From: Leucoraja ocellata
Lineage: Eukaryota
Direction of reading: 5' to 3'
Assembly (NCBI GenBank): GCA_036785375.1
Contig: JAWMAR010001538.1
Span: 62,001 to 126,000, forward strand
Length of the DNA: 64,000 nt
Position numbers and translations under genes: made by a program. This document shows positions 669-52,800 of this stretch, in pieces. The notes under the pieces are model-generated. The model had not been told where the DNA came from and made no database searches. It worked only from the letters and a program-made list of their open reading frames with translations. Every line of letters begins with the position of its first letter. The first letter of the stretch is position 1.

Positions 669-1974
669 GAAAGGGCAACATCCCATTAGTCTTTCTAATT
701 GCACGCTAGACCTGTTTGCTAAACTTTTGCGGTTGATGAACTTGGATCCCCTGATCTCTATGTCTCCAGAAATCGATGGGCTGCACCACTATGGTGCCAT
801 TGCCATACAGGGAACAGTTTACAATGTGTTTCTCTTTCAGAATTTTGTGAGAAAAAGAACAATTTTATTTTACGCTTCAATATGCTGTTAAAAATAGAAC
901 AATACAAAAGGCTCTATGGATACATTGTGTAAGTAATATTGGATGAATGTTCTTGTTCAAACACAGCATCCGAAGCAGCCCTTCAGATGAGTTAAATAAC
1001 ACAGTCAAAGTGAAAAGATGAGCGAACCTGCCTGGGTCCAATATCACTATTTCTGTATTACATGGAATGGGATCAGATGAGAAGAGCCTTGTGCCTAGCA
1101 CCCGGCCACTTATCATCAATCAATGGCTTGCCACACACTCCACGTGTTACTCCCAAATCTCTTTGCTGACTCTGCCCCATTGCTGCCCGAGTCCTTATCC
1201 CTCCTCTGATGAACTCCTATACGTATTAGTCTCAGTGCTGGTAAGGCATGGACTACAGTCTAGGTAAATGGAGAGTGATGCTCTTTCTTTAAACAACCCT
1301 ATCAAATGTGCTCATTATGGTGCAACATTGCTCATTTTTATATCAAAGAAAACCTTTCTCCAAACAATGCCATGAAACACTTACAGGGCAGAAACAACAC
1401 CTGTTAGCTAATGGGCTCACTCAAAATTGCCCCATCAGATCTCACCACACATGCACACCAGGGCATACTCGTAGAGTAAAACTCTCTCTGAACTATTCCA
1501 TAAGGTACAGCAGGAGTTAAATATAACATAACCTCTGCTCTATCTGATAGAACAGTTGGATTGCTAAAATGGAAAATGATCTATTCCCTGCATTGAGTGA
1601 AAAAAGATAAATATTAATAATAAAAGATTTGTCGTTTAATTCTGCACCTTATCAATCAATGGCAATGTTATTGTGACTGTAATTTAATTTGTGGCTGTAG
1701 GGAAGGTGAGAAATGACCAACTGACACAGCAATGTATCCCCGTGTGATCAATGGGGAAGCATTTGTATTGTGTCACAAACAACTCTACATTTATACTTTA
1801 AAAAAAAGGGAAGGAGCCAAGTTATTTCCAATAAGTTTGACAGAACAGTAACACCATGAAATGTTTACTGATGGCAAAGAGGGTGAATTGAAGTGAATGC
1901 TCAGTGGATTGGGAATGGGTCTGTTCTATTCCCAATAGAAAACCATGAGGAACTCAGCAAGCCATTTTCTCCAA

Positions 1975-2200
1975 CAGATAGGCACAAAATGCTGGAGGAA
2001 CTCAGCGAGTTAGGCAGCATCTCTGGAGAAAAGGAATAGGTGACGTTTTGGGTCGAGACCCTTCTTCAGACTCTCCTGGATCTTGACTCGAAACATCATC
2101 TATTCCTTTTCTCCAGAGAGGCTGCTTGACCTGTTAAGTTACTCCAGCATGTTTTGTCTATCTTTGTTGTAACCCAGCTTCTGCAGTTCCTTCCTACACA
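1975..2200. mobile_element. Penelope-derived short element, inverted dimer with degenerate hammerhead core
   Basis: AAAATGCTGGAG..AACTCAGC..GGCAGCATCTCTGG..GGGTCGAGACCCTTCTTCAG followed by the reverse-complement arm. Confidence 0.75.
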
Positions 2201-3852
2201 GTTCCTCCAGCATCTTGTTTTCACTCAAAATTCCAGCATCACCAGTCTCTTGTTTCTCTCAATCACTAGTCAGTCCCACTTGCTATTCCTAAACCATACC
2301 TGCTCCATGAGATCAGTGAGGGCCTGTGCACTTACTTCACAACCCAAGCCAAGAGGTCATCACTGCATCAGAGTCGTTGCTAGACCAACAATACCACCAA
2401 TTACTGCATAAAACACTGGAGATGCAAATGACTGCATGGAAAGTACTTTGGTTGTTGGTTCAGTGATTGGTATTGATATTGGTTACAGTGAACATCTTTG
2501 TATTGCGTGCTATCCAGTCAAATCGTACCATACATGAGTGCAATCACACCATTCTTGAGTACAACTGGTAGTGCATAAGGAGCAAGGAAATGGAGTGCAG
2601 AATGTACTGTTACAGCTACAGAGGATGAGCCGAAAATAACGAATCAGACTAACTCATCTCTATCAATTGGTCTACAACAAACGCATGTGTGTGACAGTGA
2701 ATTAGAACACTTTGGAAAAAGAAGGACTAGGAAACTGTTAGAACGGTTACTGTATTCAAAGTAAGAGAATTAAGATGCTATCGTCACAGCCAACACTAAT
2801 GCAAGACGACAACCAACCCTTTGAACAATGCCTGCAGGAACTATTTGTGCAAATTTGTTCTGAAACATGCTAACAAGTATGAATCACACACATCAGTAGA
2901 TTAAACCCATGACACATCTTCATTTGCAATGTTATTGAAGACCGGCCCAAGGCGTCTTCAGTTAGACTGAGAAGCCCTCTGGCATTGTACAGTTGGCAAA
3001 CTTCCAGAGAACAAGGGATGATGGTGTAGGATTTCTGTGGCAGGTTTGCAGGTGACACCAACTGGAGCCAGCGTGGGATCTTTCAGGCATAACGAGATCG
3101 CAAAACTGCCTGGATATTGAATAAAAAAACATTTATGTTTCAGATTTACAGCATCTGTAGCTTTCTTTTGCTTTTCAATTATCGCATTGATATTAATTGC
3201 TGTTGACTGCAGCTTCACTAGCCAAGTGTGACAGTGTAAAGAAATGCTGTATCTCTGGAGGAAAACAAAAGGGTCAAAGTCAATTCAACTCTAATCGGAT
3301 AAATAAAAGGGCTTGAGGAGAAATTAGCCTTGTCAGGCGTGAAAGATTTATGCCATGAAATTCAGAGAAGGATGAAAAACAGCAGAGAGTTTGAAGCCAT
3401 TGGTAGATAACAGAGATTGGGTTGATTCCAAGCTTCTAATTCCACAGAGTTGGCTTTGCAAGTTCCTCGAAGCTTCCTTGAGTTCTGAGGAACTTACAAA
3501 TGCAACATGAGTTTGAAGTTAAAGATAGGGCTGATGTGCTCAGCAGGTACGTTGCACTGCTCCTTATGTCTGGAGATGATGCATTAGATACTGCAACATG
3601 AGACGTGTGTGCAGCTGTAATTATAGTAATGCCAAGACTAAGCAGGAGCCCAATGGCTGAGGCCATGGTGATAGGAAGTGCTTTATATACTGTATGCCAG
3701 AGGTGAGCGCTCTGATTTTAACCTGGGGCCAAAGGTAAGCAAAGGGCCTGGAGAGGCCGTGCCAGGCTCAACCTATTTCAAAAGCTATGTCCTACTCAGG
3801 GTCTCATCTTCCCTACGGGCATTTCCTCAGGACAGGTTGACTTATACCACAG

Positions 3853-3945
3853 GTAGACAAAAGTGCTGGAGAAACTCAGCGGGTGCAGCAACATCTATGG
3901 AGCGAAGGAAATAGGCAACGTTTCGGGCCGAAACCCTTCTTCAGA
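3853..3945 (-). mobile_element. Penelope-derived short element with intact hammerhead core
   Basis: Minus strand CTGAAGA-AGGGTTTCGGCCC-GAAACGTT; TTGACTTATA repeated at 3837-3846 and 3946-3955. Confidence 0.75.
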
Positions 3946-4199
3946 TTGACTTATAATTTATAACCTATTAACTTATACCACTCCTTCTGTATGTTCTGCA
4001 GTAGATGATGAGACCAGTGTGGGTCCCACAGGCTCTGCCACAGGTGGACAAGAGGAAGGGGGGGGGGGCAGTTTGTGAGGTGTTCACTCGGTCCACACTG
4101 GCCTTCTGTGTGCTCCTGACACTGAATACTCTTTCTGTCCTACAAGTGGTCATGGATCAGAAGTTCCCAGGAGTCAGTGGGGAGGTTGCACTTTATAAA

Positions 4200-5703
4200 G
4201 GTTCGGAGAACATCCTTAATTCTATTTTGGTAGATTGCTCCTTGATCGTGTGCAGTTGTGGTCACCCCATTGCAGGATGGAAGTGAAGGCTTTGGAGAGG
4301 GTGCAGAAGAGAATTATTAGGATGTTGCCTGGATTCAAAGCTATTAGTTGCAAGGAGAGATTGGACAAACTTGGATTGTTTTCTCTGGAGCATTGGAGGT
4401 TGAGGAGAAACCTGATAAATGTATATAAAATAATGAGAGACATAGATACAATAGACAATCAGAGCCTTTTTGTCCAGTTGAAAGGACAAGACATTAGGAC
4501 GGAGGTACTTGGAGCAGTCAATGGAAGTGTCTTGAGAGCAATCAGTGTTATCATCAAAGAAGTACTGAAGGTACTGTTGTGAATGAAGGTAGACAAACCT
4601 CCAGGGCCTGATCAGATATATCTGAGGACATTGCGGGAAACTAGAGAGGAAATTGCAGGAGCCCTGGTTGAAATTTACGAGTCGTCCTTAAATACAGGAG
4701 AGGTGCCAGAAGACTGGATGGTGGCAAATGTTGTGCCTCTTTTCAAGAAGGGCTGCAGCGAAAATGCTGGGAACTATAGGCCGGTGACTTAACATCTGTA
4801 GTTGGAAAGTTACTAGAGAGTATTGTGAGGGATAGGTTATACAGGCATTTGGATGGGCAAGGGCAGATTAGGGATAGTCAGCATGGTTTTGTATGTGGGA
4901 GGTTGTGTCTCACAAATCTGATTGATTTTTTTGAAGACGTGACCAAAAAGGTCGATGAGGACATTAGGGTGGGTGGGGGAATGGTTGATGGAATTTAATA
5001 CAGAGAAGTGTGAGGTGTTGCATTTTGGGACATCGAACAAGGGCAGGACCTGCACAGGTAGGCCTCTGGGTAGTGTTGTAGAACAGAGGGATCTAGGAGT
5101 ACAGGTGCATGGTTCCTTGATGGTCAAGTTTCAGGTAGATAAGGTGGTCAAAAAGGCTTTTGGCACTTTGGCCTTCATCAGTCAGAGTATTGAGTATAGA
5201 AGTTGGGAGGCCATGTTGCAGTTGTATAAGACGTTGGTGAGACCGCATTTAGAATATTGTGTTCAGTCTGGGCACCATGTTATAGGAATGATATTGTTAA
5301 GCTTGAAAGGGTTCAGAAAAGATTTACGAGGATGTTGCCTGGACCAGAGGGTGTGAGCTATAGGTTGAGTAGGCTGGGTCTCTATTCCATGGAGCGCAGG
5401 AGGATGAGGCGTGATGAGGTGTGCAAAATCATGAGAGGAATAGATCGGGTAGATGCACAGAGTCTTTTGCCCAGAATAGGGGAATTGAGGACCAGAGGAC
5501 ATAGGTTCAGAAGGGGAAAGGGAAAAGATTTAATAGGAATCCGAGGGGTAACAATTTCACACGAAGGGTGGTGGGTGTATAGAACAAGCTGCCGCAGGAG
5601 GTAGTTGAGGCTTGGACTATCCCATCTTTTAAGAAACTGTTAGATAGGTACATGGATAGGACAGGTTTGGAGGGATATGGACCAAGCGCAGGCAAGTGGG
5701 ACT
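4200..5703 (+). mobile_element. CR1-clade LINE fragments (ORF2 RT region, internally deleted)
   Basis: ORFs include KPPGPDQIY..EVPEDWMVANVVPLFKKG..NYRPV, EWLMEFNTEKCEVLHFG and LYKTLVRPHLEYCVQ. Confidence 0.9.
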
Positions 5704-6320
5704 GTTGAGTATAGAAGTTGGGATGTAATGTTAAAATTGTACAAGGCATTGGTGAGGCCAATTCTGGAGTATGGTGTACAATTTTGGTTGCCTAATTATA
5801 GGAAGGATGTCAACAAAATAGAGAGAGTACAGAGGAGATTTACTAGAATGTTGCCTGGGTTTCAGCAACTAAGTTACAGAGAAAGGTTGAACAAGTTAGG
5901 GCTTTATTCTTTGGAGCGCAGAAGGTTAAGGGGGGACTTGATAGAGGTTTTTAAAATGATGAGAGGGATAGACAGAGTTGACGTGGAAAAGTTTTTCCCA
6001 CTGAGAGTAGGGAAGATTCAAACAAGGGGACATGACATGAGAATTAAGGGACTGAAGTTTAGGGGTAACATGAGGGGGAACTTCTTTACTCAGAGAGTGG
6101 TAGCTGTGTGGAATGAGCTTCCAGTGAAGGTGGTGGAGGCAGGTTCGTTTTTATCATTTAAAAATAAATTGGATAGTTATATGGATGGGAAGGAAATGGA
6201 GGGTTATGGTCTGAGCGCAGGTATATGGGACTAGGGTAGATTATGTGTTCGGCACGGACTAGAAGGGTCGAGATGGCCTGTTTCCGTGCTGTAATTGTTA
6301 TATGGTTATATGTTATATGT
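5704..6320 (+). mobile_element. Young 5'-truncated CR1 LINE inserted in the 3' UTR of the preceding CR1
   Basis: Uninterrupted ORF2 C-terminus (LYKALVRPILEYGVQFW...FFTQRVVAVWNELP) with a (TTATATG)n tail; the host 3' UTR resumes at about 6321. Confidence 0.9.
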
Positions 6321-9485: not shown

Positions 9486-9860
9486 GTGTAGGAAAGATCT
9501 GCAGATGCTGGTTTAAATCGAAGGTAGACACAAAATGCTGGAGTAACTCAGCGGGACAGGCAGCATCTCTGGAGAGAAGGAATGGGTGAGGTTTCGAGAC
9601 CGTTCTTTGGATGAGAACATACAGGGCAAGATTAGCAAGTTTGCCGATGATACAAAAGTGAGTGGTTTTGCAGACAGTGAAGATGGTTGTGAAAGATTGC
9701 AGCAGGATCTGGATCGATTGGCCAGGTGGGCGGAGGAATGGTTGATGGAATTTCTGTCTTCAGACTGAAGAAGGGTCTCGACCCTAAACGTCACCCATTC
9801 CTTCTCTGCAGAGATGCTGCCTGGCCCGCTGAGTTACTCCAGCATTTTGTGTCTACCTTC
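9486..9860. mobile_element. Penelope-derived inverted-dimer element with a CR1 RT fragment at its hinge
   Basis: Inverted arms; CCTTCAGACATCCT at 9472-9485 and 9856-9869; internal ISKFADDTK segment. Confidence 0.8.
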
Positions 9861-22459: not shown

Positions 22460-22852
22460 TAGAAACAAGAACAGCAAATGCTGGTTTACCAAAAAAAAAG
22501 GACACAAAGTGCTGGAGTAACTCGGCGGGTCAGGCAGCATCTGTGGATAGGTGATGCTTCGAGTCGGGACTATTCTTCAGTCTGAAAAGACTGAAACGTC
22601 ACCTATCCATTTCCCCAGAAGCGCAGCCTGACCCGCCGAGTTACTCCAACACTTTGTGTCTTTTATTTTATTTGTAAAGCGAGCATTATTTATCAGTCTG
22701 AAGAAGGGTCTCGACCCGAAACGTCACCTATTCCTTCGCTCCATAGATGCTGCCTCACCCGCTGAGTTTCTCCAACACAGTTGCCGGCGTAGTCGTAGTT
22801 CTGGTCAGCGTCTACCTTCGATTTTTCCAGCATCTGCAGTTCTTTCTTAAAC
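22460..22852. mobile_element. Cluster of Penelope-derived short elements; intact hammerhead core at 22698-22726
   Basis: CTGAAGA-A-GGGTC-TC-GACCC-GAAACGTC. Confidence 0.8.
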
Positions 22853-23224
22853 ATTATTTAACAACCTCTCTCCAAAGCGCCGGCCCTTACAGTTATGGAG
22901 GTCCAACGCAAGGTCCTGGAAAACACAGAGTTTTCCATTTCTGGAGAGGCAAAGGTACAGAGGGAGAATGGGATTTGTCCCCAGTGCACCAGTACAAGAG
23001 ATGGCAACTCAGGGTAGAGTACTCAGAGACTCAAACGGTCATAAGTGATAGGGGAAGAATTAGGCCATTCGGTCCATCAAGTCTACTCCACCATTCAATC
23101 ATGGCTGATCCATCTCTCCCTCCTAACCCCATTCTCCTGCCTTCTCCACATAACCAACCCACCCCTGACACCACTCATCTCAAAATTGCCACCAGTTTGT
23201 GGTCCAGATACAATATAAAATGAC

Positions 23225-23655
23225 GATAGACATACATTGCTGGAGTAGCTCAGCGGGTCAGGCAGCATCTCTGGAGAAAAAGGACGGGTGACATTTCGGG
23301 TCGGAATCCTTCTTCAGACGGCAAGAATCGAGAAACCAGTCTGGGGCAGGGTTCCGACCGGAAACGTCATCCATCCTTTGGGGGTGAAATCTCGGAGCTT
23401 CTGATTACTTTATTTGCCCAGGGCCACGCAAATATACCAAAGATAGACACACGTAGCTCAGCTGGTCACACAGCTTTACTCCAGCTTTTTGTGTCTATCT
23501 TCGGTTTAAACCAACATCTGCAGTTCCTTCCTCCACAATAACTACTAATCGGCAGAGACAAGGACCTGCAGATGCTGGTTTACACAAAGGGACAGAATGT
23601 GCTGGGGTAACTCAGCGGTTCAGGCAGTATCTCCGGAGAACATGGATAGGACAGG
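23225..23655. mobile_element. Further Penelope-derived short-element fragments downstream of C1QL1
   Basis: Same family sequence present in both orientations. Confidence 0.7.
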
Positions 23656-24418: not shown

Positions 24419-24748
<330 letters not shown>

Positions 24749-26526: not shown

Positions 26527-27520
<994 letters not shown>

Positions 27521-29000: not shown

Positions 29001-31127
29001 GAGGTTCAAATGATTTAAGAGTTGCTTTACCTCAGGTACACATACGGATGGGATGGGAGGAGTGGACTCCAACAGCTGCACTCTGAAAATATCGTAGATA
29101 GACACAAAATGTTGGAGTAACTCAACAGGTCAGGCAGCATCCCTGGGGAGAAGGAATGGGTGACGATTCATAGAAACATAGAAACACAGAAAATAGGTGC
29201 AGGAGGAGGCCACCTGGCCCTTCGAGCCAGCACCGCCATTCATTGTGATCATGGTTAATCGTCCACTATCAATTTCAGGTCAAGATTTCAGATTACAATT
29301 TCAGTTTCAGGTCAAGACCTCAGGTACACACATGGATGGGATGGGGGGAGTGGACTCCAACAGCTGCTTCAGACTGAGAGTCAGGGGAAAGATAGACTAG
29401 AGATATCTCTGAAAGCACCTCCATGTTTCTCACTTCTAATGCACATTTTAGAGGAGTAATTAACTATTCCAAATATTATACCCAGCTTAAACGAATAATA
29501 AAAGTGTTTGTATCAAATTCTTGTGTATTGGTAAATTACCAATGATAAAGATAATATTAAAAGAATATGGTGGTCAGAGAATGTAAGAACGAATAAAATA
29601 AAATTAAACATTATGTGCTGAAATGAGAAATATGGACAATCAATTTGCTTGATCAAAGCAAATGCTTTAAGGGGTTTGTAAAGGAAGAGCATGTGATCGG
29701 GGTGTTTATGGAGATTCCAGAGCTACAGTCAGATGGTTGTCAGAGTCAGTGAAGGAATGAAGGAATTGTGGCTACACTGGAGGGTTCAGAGTAAAACCCT
29801 AAGCACCTTCCCCAGCCTCCTAGTGCACTTCATAGTCAATGCAATACTTTTTGACTATAGTCACTGGTACAATGTGGGACAAACACAACCAGTTTCCACC
29901 TAGAAAGATCCTTGCAACAGCACCCTGAGTATTATATCTGCAATTTTATAATATTAACAATGTAATTTGGGCTTTAGGAAGAACAGGTATGTCAATAGAC
30001 AATAGGCAGTAGACAATAGGTGCGGGAGTAGGCCATTCGGCCCTTCGAGCCAGCCAATGTAATCATGGCTGATCATCCCCAATCAGTACCCCATTCCTGC
30101 CTTATCCCCATGTCCCATCCCACTGTATGGAATTTGCTTGAAACCGCGTTTAAATTAGCAAGGAGTTTTGTCCTGTTTCACTTGAGCGGGAAGTGTTTGT
30201 ATGAAGCTCTCTAATCATTTATCACTGTCACTTCCAGCCATCAAGTGTCTCCTGTTTTTCTTCTGTCTTGCTCACTCTGTTTCTGCGGGTCTGGTCTCTT
30301 GAGCCCATCTCAGCTCGGCACAAGGTCAATCCTTTCATCCATTTATCAACATCTTCTGGCCCATCCCTCTCTCATTGATTTTCATATTATTTATTGCTCT
30401 GAAGTGACCACAGGCAGATGTGATGGGGATTAAACAGCATCAACACACAGAATATTAATACAGTTTGATGTCTGAACACAAGAGGTTGTTTGGAATGAGA
30501 TGTGATGAATTCCCTGGCAGTTTGACTATACACAATCAAACCATTCATGATCTGAATTCCTTATTGTTTCCACGCTTCCCATCCCAGCTCTCACAGCTCT
30601 CCTATCCCATTCCTCCTCTGCGTGGCACTTGTTTGATTTATTGGTGCCTGGATATTCCTAGGGTATCCGCATGCAGATGTTGCTGGCTTTCATCACTTTG
30701 GACAATAATCGTTTCTTGAAACCTGGAGTTGCCCTTGAGTTGGACGAATCAAGGAGGCTGTTTGTGCAATTTGTTCATATTATTTTGTCTTTCCAATTGG
30801 CTCCCTTTCTCCGCTAAAGGCATTGACATTTGATGTAACGCTTTCAACCCCAACCGTGTTTAAAAAGTCTGCCAACATGCTGTCTAGGTTCATGTGAAGA
30901 ATAGCTTAAAGAACGGTACCAGAAAGTGACTTGGTATCAAAGATCAACGAGACGGCAAATGCCATTGCTTTATATTAATTTCATCTCCTCTGGCCCTACT
31001 GGCCTAATGTATTCATATTCTCCTCACCCATCTCCTAATGTTTCTTTAATTTATTTTTCATAGCCCAACTCCTTTATTCTTGGGTTCAAATTGTAGGGTT
31101 GACAAGTCATTGCAAAAAATGCAAAGA

Positions 31128-35611: not shown

Positions 35612-36680
35612 AGTTGCATGTTCCAGCTGCCATCTTTAATACCTTCCCACCAGGAAGGTATTACAGCCCTCCGTTTCTTCCTCAACTGTAGAACCAGCCA
35701 GTTTGCATCTACTGACCCTCTCCTCTGTGAGCAGAGTTGGTCCTTACCCTTAAAAACTTCTCCTTTGACTCCACACACTTCCTCCAAACCCAAGCCATAG
35801 CTATGGCCACTCGCTTGGGTCCCAGCTATGCCGGCCTCATTGTAGGGTATTTCGCACACTCACTGTTCCAGGTGTATACTGGCCCTATCCCTGAACTCTA
35901 CCTCTACTACAGTGATGACTGCATCGGTGCACTGCCTGCACCCATGCAGAATTCACTGACTTCATCAACTTTGCAACTAATTTCTATCCTGCACTCACTT
36001 CGACCATCTCTGACATCTCCCTACCCCCCCCCCCCCCCCCCCCCCAGGTACTTTCCTTTGCAACTGCAGGAGATGCAACACCTGTCCCTTTACCTCCCTC
36101 CTCGACTCCATCCAAGGACCCTGACAGTCTTTTCAGGTGAGGCAGAGGTTCACTTGTACCTCGTCTACTGTATCCACTGTGTCAACTCCTGTATATCGGC
36201 GAGACCAAGCGGCAGGCTCGGCGATCGTTTTGCTGAACACCTCTGCTCAGTCCACCTTAACCTACATGTTCTCCAGGTTGCTCAGCACTTTAACTCCCCT
36301 TCCCATTCCCAATCTGACCTTTCTGTCCTGGGCCTCCTCCATTGTCAAAGTGAGGCCCAGTACAAATTGGAGGAACAGCTCCTCCTATTTCGTTTGGGCA
36401 GCTTACACCTCAGTGGTATGAACATTGACTTCTCTACAAATAACCCTTGATTTCCCTCTCTCTCCATCCCCTCCCCTTCCCAGTTCTCACACCAGTCTTA
36501 CTGTATTTGACTACATTCTATCTGTCCTGCCCACTCCCCTGACATCAGTCTGAAGAAGGGTCTCCTCCCGAAATGTCACCCATTCCTTTTCTCCAGAGAT
36601 GCTGCCTGCCCCGCTGAGTTACTCCAGCATTTTGTGTTTACCTTTGATTTAAACCAGCATCTGCAGTTCTTTCCTGCACT
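35612..36680 (+). mobile_element. Penelope-like element (degenerate RT + GIY-YIG) ending in a hammerhead-bearing pLTR
   Basis: NFSFDSTHFLQTQAIAMATRLGPSYA, YSDDCIG and LGDRFAEHL; CTGAAGA core at 36550. Confidence 0.88.
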
Positions 36681-36939: not shown

Positions 36940-37950
36940 ACGACACCTGTGTGAGGTGCATCCAGCTGCAGTTTCTTACAGGCTGTGTTAGGGAACTGAG
37001 GAGGTCATGGATCGGGGTTTCACTGTGATGCTTAAGGTATGGGCAGAAGATAGATGTGTGACCATCATCATGCAAGGGAGCAAGTGCTAGTGTCTCCTGT
37101 GGACATTTGCCTAAATACCAGATGTGCTCCTTGGGATACTGTTGGGGAGATGACGGGTCATGGGAGGAAAGCAACCATTAGGTCTGTGGCATTGAGCCTG
37201 GCTCTGAGGCACAGTGGTGGTGGTGGTGGTGGGGTGGGGGGGGGGGGGGGGGGGAATGGTCAGGTGTTGTGAGAGTAGCCCGTGTCCCACTTGGGAAACC
37301 TGAACGGAAACCTCTGGAGACTTTGCACCCCACCCAAGGTTTCCGTGCAGTTCCCGGAGGTTGCAGGTAGTGGAAGCAAGTAGGGAGACTGACAAAAACC
37401 TCCGGGAACCACACCGAAACCTTGGGTGGGGCGCAAAGTCTCCAGAGGTTTCCGTTCAGGTTTCCTAAGTGGGACAGGGGCATAATTGGAGACTCATGAG
37501 TAGTTTGGGGGTAGACGGGGGGGATTCTGTGGCAGCAAGTGAACGTCTAGGATGGTGGGTTGCATCTGTGGTGGCAGGGTCCAAGGATGTCTCTGTGCAG
37601 CTGCAGAATATTCTCAAGGGGAAGGTGAGCAGCTGGACGTCATTGTGCGCATCGGCACAATTGACATAAGTAGGAAAAGGGATGAGGTCCTGTGGAGTGA
37701 ATACAGGGATTTGGACAAAAGAATAAAATACAGGGTCTCCAGGGAAGTTGCCTATGGATTGCGTGTAATGCCATGTACTCGTGGGACAGGGATGTCGATT
37801 TTTGGACCGTTAGGATCTTTTATGGGCCAGAGGTAATTTGTGCATGAGGCTTGGGTTGCACCTGAATTGGAGGAGAACCAATATCCTGGCTGGTAGATTT
37901 GCTAGTGCGGTGTACTTCTCGGGGTGGTTTAAACAAAATTGGCAAGGGGA
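36940..37950 (+). mobile_element. CR1 ORF1 remnant (zinc finger plus SGNH esterase-like)
   Basis: C..C..LQ.L motif; LQNILKG.GEQLDVIVRIGTIDI. Confidence 0.7.
37278..37481. mobile_element. Palindromic Harbinger-like MITE nested in CR1 ORF1
   Basis: About 80-bp inverted arms beginning GCCC(G/C)TGTCCCACTT.GGAAACCTGAACGGAAACCTCTGGAGACTTTG. Confidence 0.85.
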
Positions 37951-45615: not shown

Positions 45616-45879
45616 CTACATCTGAAGTAGCAGCCCTGAAGTTTATGCTGCCAGCCTAATTGAGAAGGACAACCCAGAGGTGTCCTTTGCTGTCATGATT
45701 TAGGTGTTCACAGCATTGGTTTTGGCCTGAGTCAGCTGGTAGGAAACTCTAGATCTACTCTAGAAACTGATGGCAAGGTGGATCCAACAGTCCATGGGGA
45801 AAGTCAGTGGACTTGGCTGGAGACTCGTGTGGCCATAAGCTTTCTGAATGGTGATAAACATAACACAAGCTGGGTTGGT

Positions 45880-47045
45880 CTGGCTTCCATCCAGCACTCA
45901 AATACACCTGGACCATTTCTGACACTTCCCTACCATTCCTTGACCTCACTATCTCCACTGCAGGTGATAGACTTCTGACCGACATCCACTATAAACCCAC
46001 TGACTCGCATGGCTATCTGGACTACACTTCTTCCCACCCTGCTTCCTGTAAGGACTCCATCCCCTACTCACAATTCCTCCGTTTACGCCGCATCTGCTCC
46101 ACGGATGAGGCGTTCCACACCAGGGCATCTGAAATGTCCTCATTCTTCAGGGAACGGGGGTTCCCCTCCACCATAGATGAGGCTCGCACCAAGGTCTCTT
46201 CCATACCCCTCTCTCCCCATCTCCCCCCCCCCCACTCGCAACAAGGGCAGAGTCCCCCTAGTCCTCACCTTTCACCCCACCAGCCATCACATACAACAAG
46301 TAATCCTCCGTCAGTTTCGCCACCTCCAACGTGACCCCACCACTCGCCACATCTTCCCATCTCCCCCCATATCTGCCTTGTGCAAAGACCGCTCCCTCCG
46401 TAACTCCCTTGTCAATTCATCCCTTCCCTCCCGTACCAAATCCTCCCCGGGCACTTTCCCTTGCAACTGCAAGAGATGCAACACTTGTCCCTTTACCTCC
46501 CCACTCAACTCCATTCAAGGACCCAAGCAATCGTTCCAGGTGCGACAGAGATTTACCTGCATCTCTTCCAACCTCATCTATTGCATCCGCTGCTCTAGAT
46601 GTCAGCAGATCTATATCGGTGAGATCAAGCGGAGGTTGGGCGATCGTTTCGTCGAACACCTCCGCTCGGTCCGCAATAACCAACCTGACCTCCCGGTGGC
46701 TCAGCACTTCAACTCCCCCTCCCATGGCCAGAGTGAGGAACATCGGAAATTGGAGGAAAAGCACCTCGTATTCCGCTTGGGGTGTCTGCATCCTGGGGGC
46801 ATGAACATTGAATTCTCACAATTTTGTTAGTTCTTGCTGTCTCCTCCCCTTCCTCAGCCCTCCTTGCTGTCTCCTCCCCTTCCTCAGCCCTCCTGCTGTC
46901 TCATTTGGGCTCCTCCTCCTTTTTCCTTTCTTTTGCCCCCCCCACCCTCGATCAGTCTGAAGAAGGGCTTTGGCCCGAAACGGTGCCTATTTCCTTCGCT
47001 CCATAGATGCTGCTGCACCTGCTGAGTTTCTCCAGCATTTTTATG
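45880..47045 (+). mobile_element. Penelope-like element (RT thumb + GIY-YIG endonuclease) ending in a hammerhead-bearing pLTR
   Basis: ORF 46177-46830 includes VPLVLTFHP, CNCKRCNTC and NLIYCIRCSRCQQIYIGEIKRRLGDRFVEH; CTGAAGA..GAAA at 46957-46980. Confidence 0.92.
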
Positions 47046-49850: not shown

Positions 49851-52800
49851 ATCCTTCCTGTAGTGCGTGGTCAGAACTGCACACATTACTTGGTGTGCTG
49901 TCTGACCAGTATTTAAAAAAAATTGTGAAATAACATCCCCAAACTCTTGTCTTCACGGTCAGGACATAGAATATAAGTATGACATATGTAGCTAGTGTGG
50001 TGACAGTGGCATGCGATGCCACTTAAAGGAACTATGGAGTTCAAGTTCTCTGAGATCGGCCATATCCACCATTTTGTGTCTTTCTACTGTATATGTACTA
50101 CCCCCATCTGACTTCCATAATACATCTTGTTGGGATTAACTTCCATCTGCTAAAGCTCTGCCCTACTTTCTGTCCGGTCTACATCCTGCCATAGGTTTTG
50201 ACAACTTTCCACAAACACCAACTTTCATGTCATCTACAACGTTCTAAACACTTCCATCTCGTCTGTAGATTCTTTTAAATTGCGTGGGTGCAATCCATCG
50301 GGATTTCCTGTTTCCTATTTTAAGCTAACATTTCGCTGTCCAATGTAATCTCCGCCATTCTGTTTCCATGGTAAATGCAGAAATGGGAGTGGTTTAAGTT
50401 GTTCAGCCAGTGCAGTTATGGCCACACAGCTCCAGTGACCTGGTTGAATCCTGATATCTGGTGTTATCTGCTTGGGCATTCCCACTATGTATGCTTTTGT
50501 ATCAGCACTCTGGTTTTCTCCCACATACCAGAGATGTAGAGGTGGATAGACTGCAAATTTCCCCCAGTGTATGTTTGTTGAATGTGCGGGGACTTGATAT
50601 TCATTAAAATGTTCTAAAGAAACTACTTCCCTGCACAAACCTGGAGAGTGTTGCAGAGCCGAGATCTTGGAGTACAGGTGCATGTTTCCCTGAAAGTGAC
50701 CGTTCAGATGGACAGGGTGAAGTATTTGTCACCCTTGCCTTTATTGGGAATGACTGAGTAAAAGAGTTGGGAGATCCTAATACATCCATACAAGTCATTG
50801 GTGTGACAACACTGATTACTGGGTGCAGTTCTGGGGAAAATGGGCTATGAAATGGCAGATTAAATTAATGGTAGATAGAATTAAACACAGCATTGGAGAT
50901 GGTAGAAAGTCTGCAGGACAGGAGCGACTTCAGTTGACATGGGATTAAGATGAGAAAACTGTCGAGGCTGGTTTATAGAGAAGAAAAGTGTTGGAATAAC
51001 TCGGCTGTCAGGGAATATGTCTGCAGAACTTGAATGGGTGACTTTTGGCTTGAGACCCTTCAGATTGATTGTAGTTGGATGAATTTGTCCATTGCAATTG
51101 TTGGAGAGAAGGAAATGAGTTGTCCATGGTTTTCTGGCAATGACACTATGTTATCTGTCATTATTGTACAGTTCTTGGTCAGAGCTTGCTCTACAGAATG
51201 TTGGAATTCTCTTCCTGAATTTCAGTGGGGGCTAGAATTGGGAAATAGTTCATTGGCTTTTAATAATTTGGGATGCCGTGAAATCAGTCAGGAAATGATA
51301 CTGTCTCTACATTCATTAAAACAGGAGATTTCAGTACTTAGTTCCAGCAATTTGGGTCACATCAGCCTCTAAGGAAATGTCAGTTGAGCTCTGGTTAAGA
51401 GCGAAAATACTTCATGTGGGAGCCTTGCAGCGTGAAGAGAAGGGGATTTCATTCTATCAGCCTTGATCCTGAAGGTTGGCAATTTGTGCCTGATCTGGGT
51501 CCCAATATATTTTGATATTATAACATCACTGCCTGTCCAAGGGTAGCAAATGAGTTCTGAAGGACCGTGCAAGAACTAATTACCTCCTTAGCGGAATCTT
51601 TCATTGCAATGATTAAGCCAACTCCAGTCACTCCAATACTTTTTCTTTTCTCCAATTTCTCATCTACCTTCTATTCCTTGACAACAACCTTCACACAGTG
51701 CCTGACTGTGCCAGCCCCTCTGAATGCTTACACATCTCAGAATTTTCATGTCCAATGACGGGTAATATAGTAAAACAAAAACATGGAAACAAGTCCTTGG
51801 GGGCCCAACTCGTCCATGCCAATCAAGATGTCCCATCTAAGCTGGCAGATGTCTTGCATCCTACTAAACCTTTCATGTACAGTCTACCCTCATTATGACA
51901 GACTTCTTTATAATGATTTTGGTTGCAGCAGACCAAGATGTTGATTCATGGTTCAGCTGACCAGTTGAGCTATTGTCAGCTTAACCAGAGCTCAACTGAC
52001 ATTTCCTTATAGGCTGATGTGCACAGCACAACATTTGGGCATTGGAAAGGCAGCGGTGGGGAGAGATGGAGCAGTAAAACACTCGTGAGGAGCGTTGCAT
52101 TGGGGCCGTGTTTGCAGTGGTTGCTACAAACTCAGCAGTTTACTGGGTGTTGGATACAGCGCCAAGTGCACCAAGCACCTGCATGACCTTGGCAACACGT
52201 TTGTCAGTCACCTGGTAATGGCTTGAGGCTCCCGTTGCACCACTATGCTCTTTCTCCCCCCCCCCCCCCCCCCCCAAAAACCCCAATCTGCCTGGTTAGC
52301 CACTGAGCTGGCGCCACACGGCGTGCTTCCGCATGAAGGTGGTGTGAGTACCAGGCATGTCTGTGGTGCACTGTGGGGCAGAGGGCTCTGTGGCTCCATT
52401 TCCCCCCCCCCCCCCCCCCCCCCTTGGAATCAATTGGTAGGAACCGACACCATTTCCCCTTGTATAATGAGGGTTTGCTGTACTGTGTTATTGCACCCAC
52501 CTCAACTACTGCCTCTAACACCTCATTCCATATGTGTACCACCCTCTGAAAACATTTCCCCACACGTTCCTATTTTTTTTTTCTCTTGCCTTTTGATTCC
52601 ACCCTGGGGAAAAATACACTTTCCCTCATCTATTCCACGCAAGGTGCTGAAGGAATTGAATTTTTCTCCACCTCCATGTTGGGAAGTTCAAATCCTCCTG
52701 AACCTTCCCAAATATTATCACTCTGCTGTTGGTGACGGTGTCCATCTGCCAATATCTGAACATACAAGGCAGAAGCACGAGTTGGCCTCTCAGCCCTTCA

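Follow-up and report, generated by a model that had tools for sequence, protein, structure and literature searches.

A short insert in a Penelope-derived repeat of Leucoraja ocellata is probably a synthesis-dependent, repair-mediated local duplication that was templated on exon 2 of the neighboring C1QL1 gene. It lies in a window of 64,000 nucleotides (64 kb), the whole stretch of DNA analyzed here, to which all positions refer.

The insert and the repeat that carries it

Positions 22775-22812 align with 24537-24574 without gaps and in the same orientation, with 34 of the 38 bases identical, exactly as a previous sequence-only reading had placed and described this match to exon 2. The runner-up site for the 38-mer, on either strand of the 64-kb window, reaches only 23/38, and the best matches of 300 shuffled 38-mers ranged from 20 to 25/38, which excludes chance as the source of a 34/38 match. 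The one other copy of the 38-mer within the window is that in exon 2, and identity breaks off abruptly at both edges of the block. The parts of the event are the following.

22775..22809, + strand: acceptor segment, an insertion of 35 bases in place of 8 element bases, delimited by the alignment and by the loose-end consensus at 22774 and 22810
22810..22812, + strand: right-junction microhomology, 3 bases common to the element and the donor
24537..24574, + strand: donor stretch inside C1QL1 exon 2; 1725 bases separate it from where the acceptor block ends

Of the 38-base block, 35 bases are foreign to the element, for a net gain of 27. At the left junction, the first 2-3 bases of the insert can equally be read as element sequence, i.e. 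as microhomology, and the element picks up in register on either side of the insert. The previously claimed replacement of usual element sequence therefore holds, refined to 35 bases for 8. Neither a poly(A) tail nor an exon junction was found in the insert, whose donor sequence is wholly within exon 2. The anatomy of the event (a nearby donor, a small deletion, microhomology and no tail) is shown by the sequence. A search with the 30-base core gave no exact match in metagenome or prokaryotic genome collections that would point to a foreign donor, and a literature search, mostly outside subscription journals, found no report of the C1QL1 insert locus.

The host of the insert is a short repeat copy with a hammerhead motif and target-site-duplication-like flanks, as listed here.

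22693..22853, + strand: host, short copy of an extremely abundant Penelope-derived terminal repeat
22698..22728, + strand: minimal hammerhead motif; the cut is predicted to follow 22725, which leaves 49 bases up to the insert
22684..22692, no strand: first of the two 9-base direct repeats that flank the host, on its left, target-site-duplication-like
22852..22860, no strand: second of these 9-base repeats, on the right of the host, overlapping the element tail by 2 bases
45864-46830 and 35731-36450, + strand: broken Penelope-type ORF remnants, each with a hammerhead repeat 100-130 bases after it

Copies of the same family occur throughout the 64-kb window. In sequencing runs of relatives, 600 bases containing the host and two other repeats were matched by more than 200,000 contigs per run (216,000-252,000). 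The insert is not a feature of this family, an option that we rejected because 8 of 9 aligned element copies are without it and because the loose ends at 22774 in the relatives' runs, 1052-1286 per run, represent the normal continuation of the element.

The hammerhead motif has an intact CUGANGA/GAAA/UH core, an extra A after position 9, the G10.1-C11.1 pair and a palindromic ACGU (15.2-16.2) where helix III would be, together with a helix II of 4-5 bp and a helix I of just 2 bp. The core, the additional base, the G10.1-C11.1 pair and the palindrome at 15.2-16.2 are also the traits given for hammerheads of Penelope-like elements in the available text of Cervera and de la Pena (2014, PMC4209133), and the host resembles those hammerheads in all of them as well as in being dispersed as single copies. 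Its 2-bp helix I differs from the usual 4-5 bp in that account, where the Drosophila virilis variant also has 2 bp. Two copies of the host's family, at ~36545 and ~46955, lie 100-130 bases after related ORF remnants of GIY-YIG type, again as in PMC4209133; one of these remnants resembles GIY-YIG clusters with a score of 0.96, with a weak Pfam GIY-YIG match (E 0.06). Judged by its motif, the host carries a Penelope-type hammerhead. The palindrome is kept in 2 of the 6 hammerhead motif matches of the window, the host included. Rfam gave no match at gathering score in the whole window, and near the site, with E values up to 10, four sub-threshold matches were obtained, none of them a hammerhead. 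Moreover, neither strand of the host folds better than shuffled sequences (z = +0.8 for the + strand), and the minimum-energy fold of the region is not a hammerhead. The element had earlier been called a hammerhead element, a name that stands for the motif, with its core and palindrome, and does not extend to an Rfam hammerhead match.

Two other arrangements of repeats were observed in the window. At ~9607-9753, a LINE-like RT fragment of ~150 bases sits between opposite-facing halves of the hammerhead repeat. At 22460-22660 and 23216-23380, opposite-facing repeat pairs form long hairpins with sub-threshold Rfam matches to microRNA families, as expected from inverted Penelope ends.

We also considered whether the insert could be an artefact of assembly or polishing. 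None of the 24 sequencing runs listed resembles the window's own sample, the best sharing 0.58 of its words with the window; none of those listed is an RNA run, which has no bearing on expression. Four of them, probably from other species (X1 and X2 from organism A, X3 from B, X4 from C), were compared with 22500-23099 at 85% likeness. In these four runs the depth over the insert was 1,378-6,048, i.e. ~0.03% of the neighboring repeat depth and scaling with it; since the insert depth tracks a swamping repeat depth, a single-copy contig is invisible there. Among the 32 pieces listed of ~569,000, from filtered records, none spans the insert, and the longest over the host are 82-86 bases and end at 22772-22778. 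The unique flank 22880-23019 has no cover in X1 and short pieces in X2 and X3, which proves nothing. One organism C contig, with a depth of 31.9 under a 31-base bridging rule, corresponds to 22830-23068 with 8 differences in 239 bases; it begins within the host and takes in its last 24 bases, a weak sign that the host is common to a relative ~3% diverged. The lack of a run resembling the window's own sample and of a piece across the insert would be compatible with an artefact, but a chimeric read would presumably reproduce the donor without three transitions and a CpG change, and the junctions show microhomology and deletion. In addition, the right flank with the end of the host matches the organism C contig, and a young insert may simply be absent from the four runs if they come from other species. 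We regard an artefact as distinctly unlikely.

Donor gene and mismatches

The donor is a two-exon C1q-domain gene, located on the minus strand as follows.

26593..27174, - strand: C1QL1 coding exon 1, 194 codons; best match the sawfish C1q-related factor, 96% identical
24419..24598, - strand: C1QL1 (C1q-related factor) coding exon 2, 59 codons plus stop

The proteins closest to exon 1 are the C1q-related factors of sawfish (96%), basking shark and electric ray. We take C1q-related factor to be C1QL1, which agrees with two matches named 'Complement C1q like 1'.

Three of the four mismatches between insert and exon are transitions; one mismatch removes a CpG and one is at the left junction. Reading the insert on the coding strand, two of the four change an amino acid relative to the gene (Ser to Gly and Ser to Cys), and the remaining two are synonymous changes of Ala codons. 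These mismatches look like decay. One of the synonymous ones falls at a GCT codon of C1QL1, a gene with 84% GC3 in which GCC is used 12 times and GCT 3 times, so this mismatch may be a change on the side of the gene, given its preference for GCC.

The neighboring gene is the most likely donor, the main argument being proximity: as first proposed from the sequence, it supplies a match 1725 bases away, and a copy from a distant source would have landed so close to it with a chance of only ~1e-6. A donor among the paralogues (C1QL2, 3 or 4) or a pseudogene, the former having been offered before as an alternative, would account for the synonymous mismatches, i.e. for the two Ala codon changes, in a host repeat that appears younger than 10% divergence. 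Nevertheless, the prior for such a copy to land less than 2 kb from this exon is ~1-2 in a million, assuming a genome of 2-3 Gb, and C1QL homology that could have guided it is absent from the acceptor site. Besides, the two codon-changing mismatches would be left unexplained. The protein motif at this site is present in 68 of the 120 homologues listed, the other 52 being without it, and the named homologues in this comparison are mostly C1QL1 and C1QL3. YASNS is found in 66 of the 68 and neither YAGN nor a C after N in any of them (0/68), so that both amino-acid-changing mismatches differ from all motif-holding homologues listed, and even a paralogue donor would need later changes. A paralogue or pseudogene donor is therefore very unlikely.

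The number of mismatches puts some strain on the simplest account, in which a faithful copy decayed after capture. Across 127 bases the host has no majority difference relative to its family, with the highest alternative at ~41% (some differences being uncounted), and the contrast between the insert (4/38) and the host (0/127) gives a Fisher p of 0.0025, which becomes 0.03-0.10 if the bases at the junction and one change on the gene side are left out. Since the insert is no older than its host and yet has more mismatches, some of these may date from the capture itself, or the repeat may have been homogenized. Plain decay after capture is a poor fit, and copying errors at capture or homogenization of the repeat may be needed in addition. 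The insert's 4/38 falls inside the mismatch range of nine tabulated local pairs in the window, which extends from 1/42 to 5/40.

Mechanism of the duplication

A repair origin would begin with a double-strand break in the germline, or with a stalled fork, in the T-run of the already inserted Penelope-derived repeat. One 3' end would have annealed to C1QL1 exon 2, 1.7 kb off on the same chromosome, through a microhomology of 2-3 bases, and would have been extended by ~35 bases on this template. The extended strand would then have been released and, through the second microhomology, rejoined to the other end. A few element bases would have been lost, and the copy would have been neutral since then, accumulating changes. 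The pathway, the order of these events and the neutrality of the copy are what we infer from the anatomy of the event.

Such events have been described by Pace, Sen, Batzer and Feschotte (2009, PMC2671141), who detected repair-mediated duplications (RDs) as transposon interruptions. According to the available text of this study, 824 of 1136 donors in the human RD set lie within 5 kb, with a peak of distances near 1.2 kb, and donors include exons. All of the 39 proximal RDs inspected there (39/39) are without poly(A/T) and have microhomology, a deletion or filler; the bulk of RDs diverge at the neutral rate and RDs are found in all transposon classes in proportion to class abundance. The C1QL1-derived insert resembles the RDs so described in several respects: a transposon copy is interrupted, with its sequence continuing on both sides; the donor shares the chromosome with the insert, and its distance of 1725 bases falls between 50 bp and 5 kb; and the breakpoints correspond to the class 'MH+Del', with microhomologies of 3 bases on the right and 2-3 on the left, 8 bases replaced and no poly(A/T). 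Unlike them, it measures 35-38 bases and is below the 50-base search cut-off, which places it outside their catalogue; this cut-off is presented by the authors as a drawback of the BLAST step and not as a property of the mechanism. On the basis of the same text, we assign the insert to the broader group of short local duplications of repair type (RD/doublet, with the doublets of Thomas et al. cited in PMC2671141). The survey species given in that text include no cartilaginous fishes, and the RD class, described in mammals, chicken and zebrafish, is here extended to one.

A related process is the polymerase theta-dependent formation of templated insertions (TINS), for which the available text of bioRxiv 10.1101/2019.12.20.882852 reports that templates usually lie no more than 30 bp away and that primary tracts are seldom longer than 10 bp. 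The insert resembles TINS in pointing to microhomology-primed, aborted synthesis and in being a short direct repeat next to which a few bases were deleted, but it differs in having a 35-base tract templated 1.7 kb away. A classical polymerase theta insertion was rejected on both template distance and tract length.

Reverse transcription offers another route, and both templated repair and template switching by an RT had been proposed from the sequence. The ribozyme-sense RNA of the element corresponds to the + strand and the C1QL1 mRNA to the minus strand; the element cDNA has the same polarity as this mRNA, and switching of the RT onto it is therefore impossible. An mRNA template switch or retrocopy was rejected for this incompatible polarity and for the lack of an exon junction and of poly(A). 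Of the two proposals, templated repair is the one supported by the microhomology, the 8-base deletion, the local donor and the missing tail, and switching onto the mRNA is excluded.

With mRNA excluded as template, the RT of Penelope could still have left the element RNA during integration, copied ~35 bases of the nearby genomic + strand and returned 8 bases further on. Both cases in the window for which donor and acceptor could be told apart are found inside copies of the host's family, the second donor adjoining an element tail, and an error-prone RT step would account for mismatches in the insert in excess of those of the host. These observations have to be set against the requirement for two switches with a return in register, and against the ordinary 9-base direct repeats that flank the host. 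Furthermore, the term 'template switch' is absent from the available text of PMC11167929, in which 'jump' appears only as the name of an author, and duplications of repair type occur across all transposon classes by abundance, as reported in the available text of PMC2671141. We hold an RT chimera made during integration to be unlikely. It is similarly doubtful that the Penelope hammerhead repeats of this ray or skate lineage actively capture neighboring DNA, which would be seen as an excess of local inserts in this family.

Antisense potential and other local duplications

It had also been suggested that a transcript of the element in its ribozyme orientation would be antisense to the C1QL1 mRNA. 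A functional reading of this kind, in which the hammerhead cleaves the + strand RNA and this RNA pairs with C1QL mRNAs, is highly improbable, even if the host retains an intact hammerhead core and the predicted duplex with exon 2 has an energy of -62 kcal/mol (-78 for a perfect match) with 20 contiguous matching bases. Indeed, this strong duplex follows from the insert being an exon copy, as any same-orientation copy of an exon is complementary to its mRNA, and complementarity is the sole support for the antisense idea. Helix I has 2 bp, and in vitro no cleavage by a lone minimal hammerhead could be detected, according to the available text of PMC4209133. No second ribozyme is present to free a defined RNA. 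In anole, RNA reads neither start nor stop at the cut site of a Penelope hammerhead (available text of PMC11167929). The folding of the region, as given above, is no better than that of shuffles, the insert has drifted off its target rather than tracking it, and the sister event at 29317-29367 has a non-coding donor.

The same judgment applies to the more elaborate proposal that an RT captured local chromosomal DNA and that the + strand RNA left after cleavage is antisense to the most conserved C1QL motif, damping the whole family, to which we give very little credence; its regulatory half is the weak link and its capture half is more likely. Were the antisense reading correct, a regulator of a gene family would have been made jointly by the ribozyme of a transposon and an error of repair, which would be surprising.

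The position of the insert relative to the end of C1QL1 was also noted. Candidate poly(A) signals of C1QL1 (AATAAA on the minus strand) are found before the insert, at 23409, and after it, at 22662-22667 and 22098. Use of a distal candidate would place the insert, as a sense repeat, inside the C1QL1 3' UTR.

Local duplications elsewhere in the window were sought by an ungapped self-comparison, retaining two-copy pairs with E up to 0.01. A gapped self-comparison misses the insert, as alignments between repeats span it, and the ungapped version recovers it. This gave 21 two-copy pairs, including that of exon 2 and the insert, of which 13 are within 2.5 kb, compared to an expectation of 7.7%. Approximately 6-7 independent, non-trivial events are left after joining pieces of the same event and dropping a G-run, a palindrome and a known repeat. 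The pairs without an assigned polarity could be sparse, two-copy samples of genome-wide repeats.

One of these pairs serves as an internal control for the C1QL1-derived insert.

29317..29367, + strand: second local copy, 48/51 identical to the non-coding stretch 29029-29079

It interrupts a reverse-oriented copy of the host's repeat family, with ~43 bases added and microhomology at the junctions, and lies 238 bases from its donor, which directly adjoins the tail of the element, and 6.5 kb from the C1QL1-derived insert. Roles of donor and acceptor were assigned for this pair and for that of exon 2. The occurrence of two such inserts in a span of 7 kb, both in this very abundant repeat, suggests that it could report germline break repair genome-wide in rays and skates.

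Given 5-10 such events, the chance of a coding donor in the window is 6-11%. Our verdict is that the C1QL1-derived insert is an ordinary short local duplication, real-looking and conspicuous because its donor is coding. As one more local repair scar, it would be of little consequence and ordinary for vertebrate genomes.

Several further local copies were observed. A 42-base inverted copy with one mismatch (51358-51399 and 51980-52021), 581 bases apart and with otherwise unrelated flanks, probably represents a recent duplication of this kind. Short local duplications with 79-88% identity in gapped alignments are found at 16686-16793/18162-18260, 11721-11844/12401-12533 and 35276-35315/35370-35409. 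Finally, 37278-37481 is a 204-base imperfect palindrome with 85-base arms of 93% identity, perhaps a MITE-like element.
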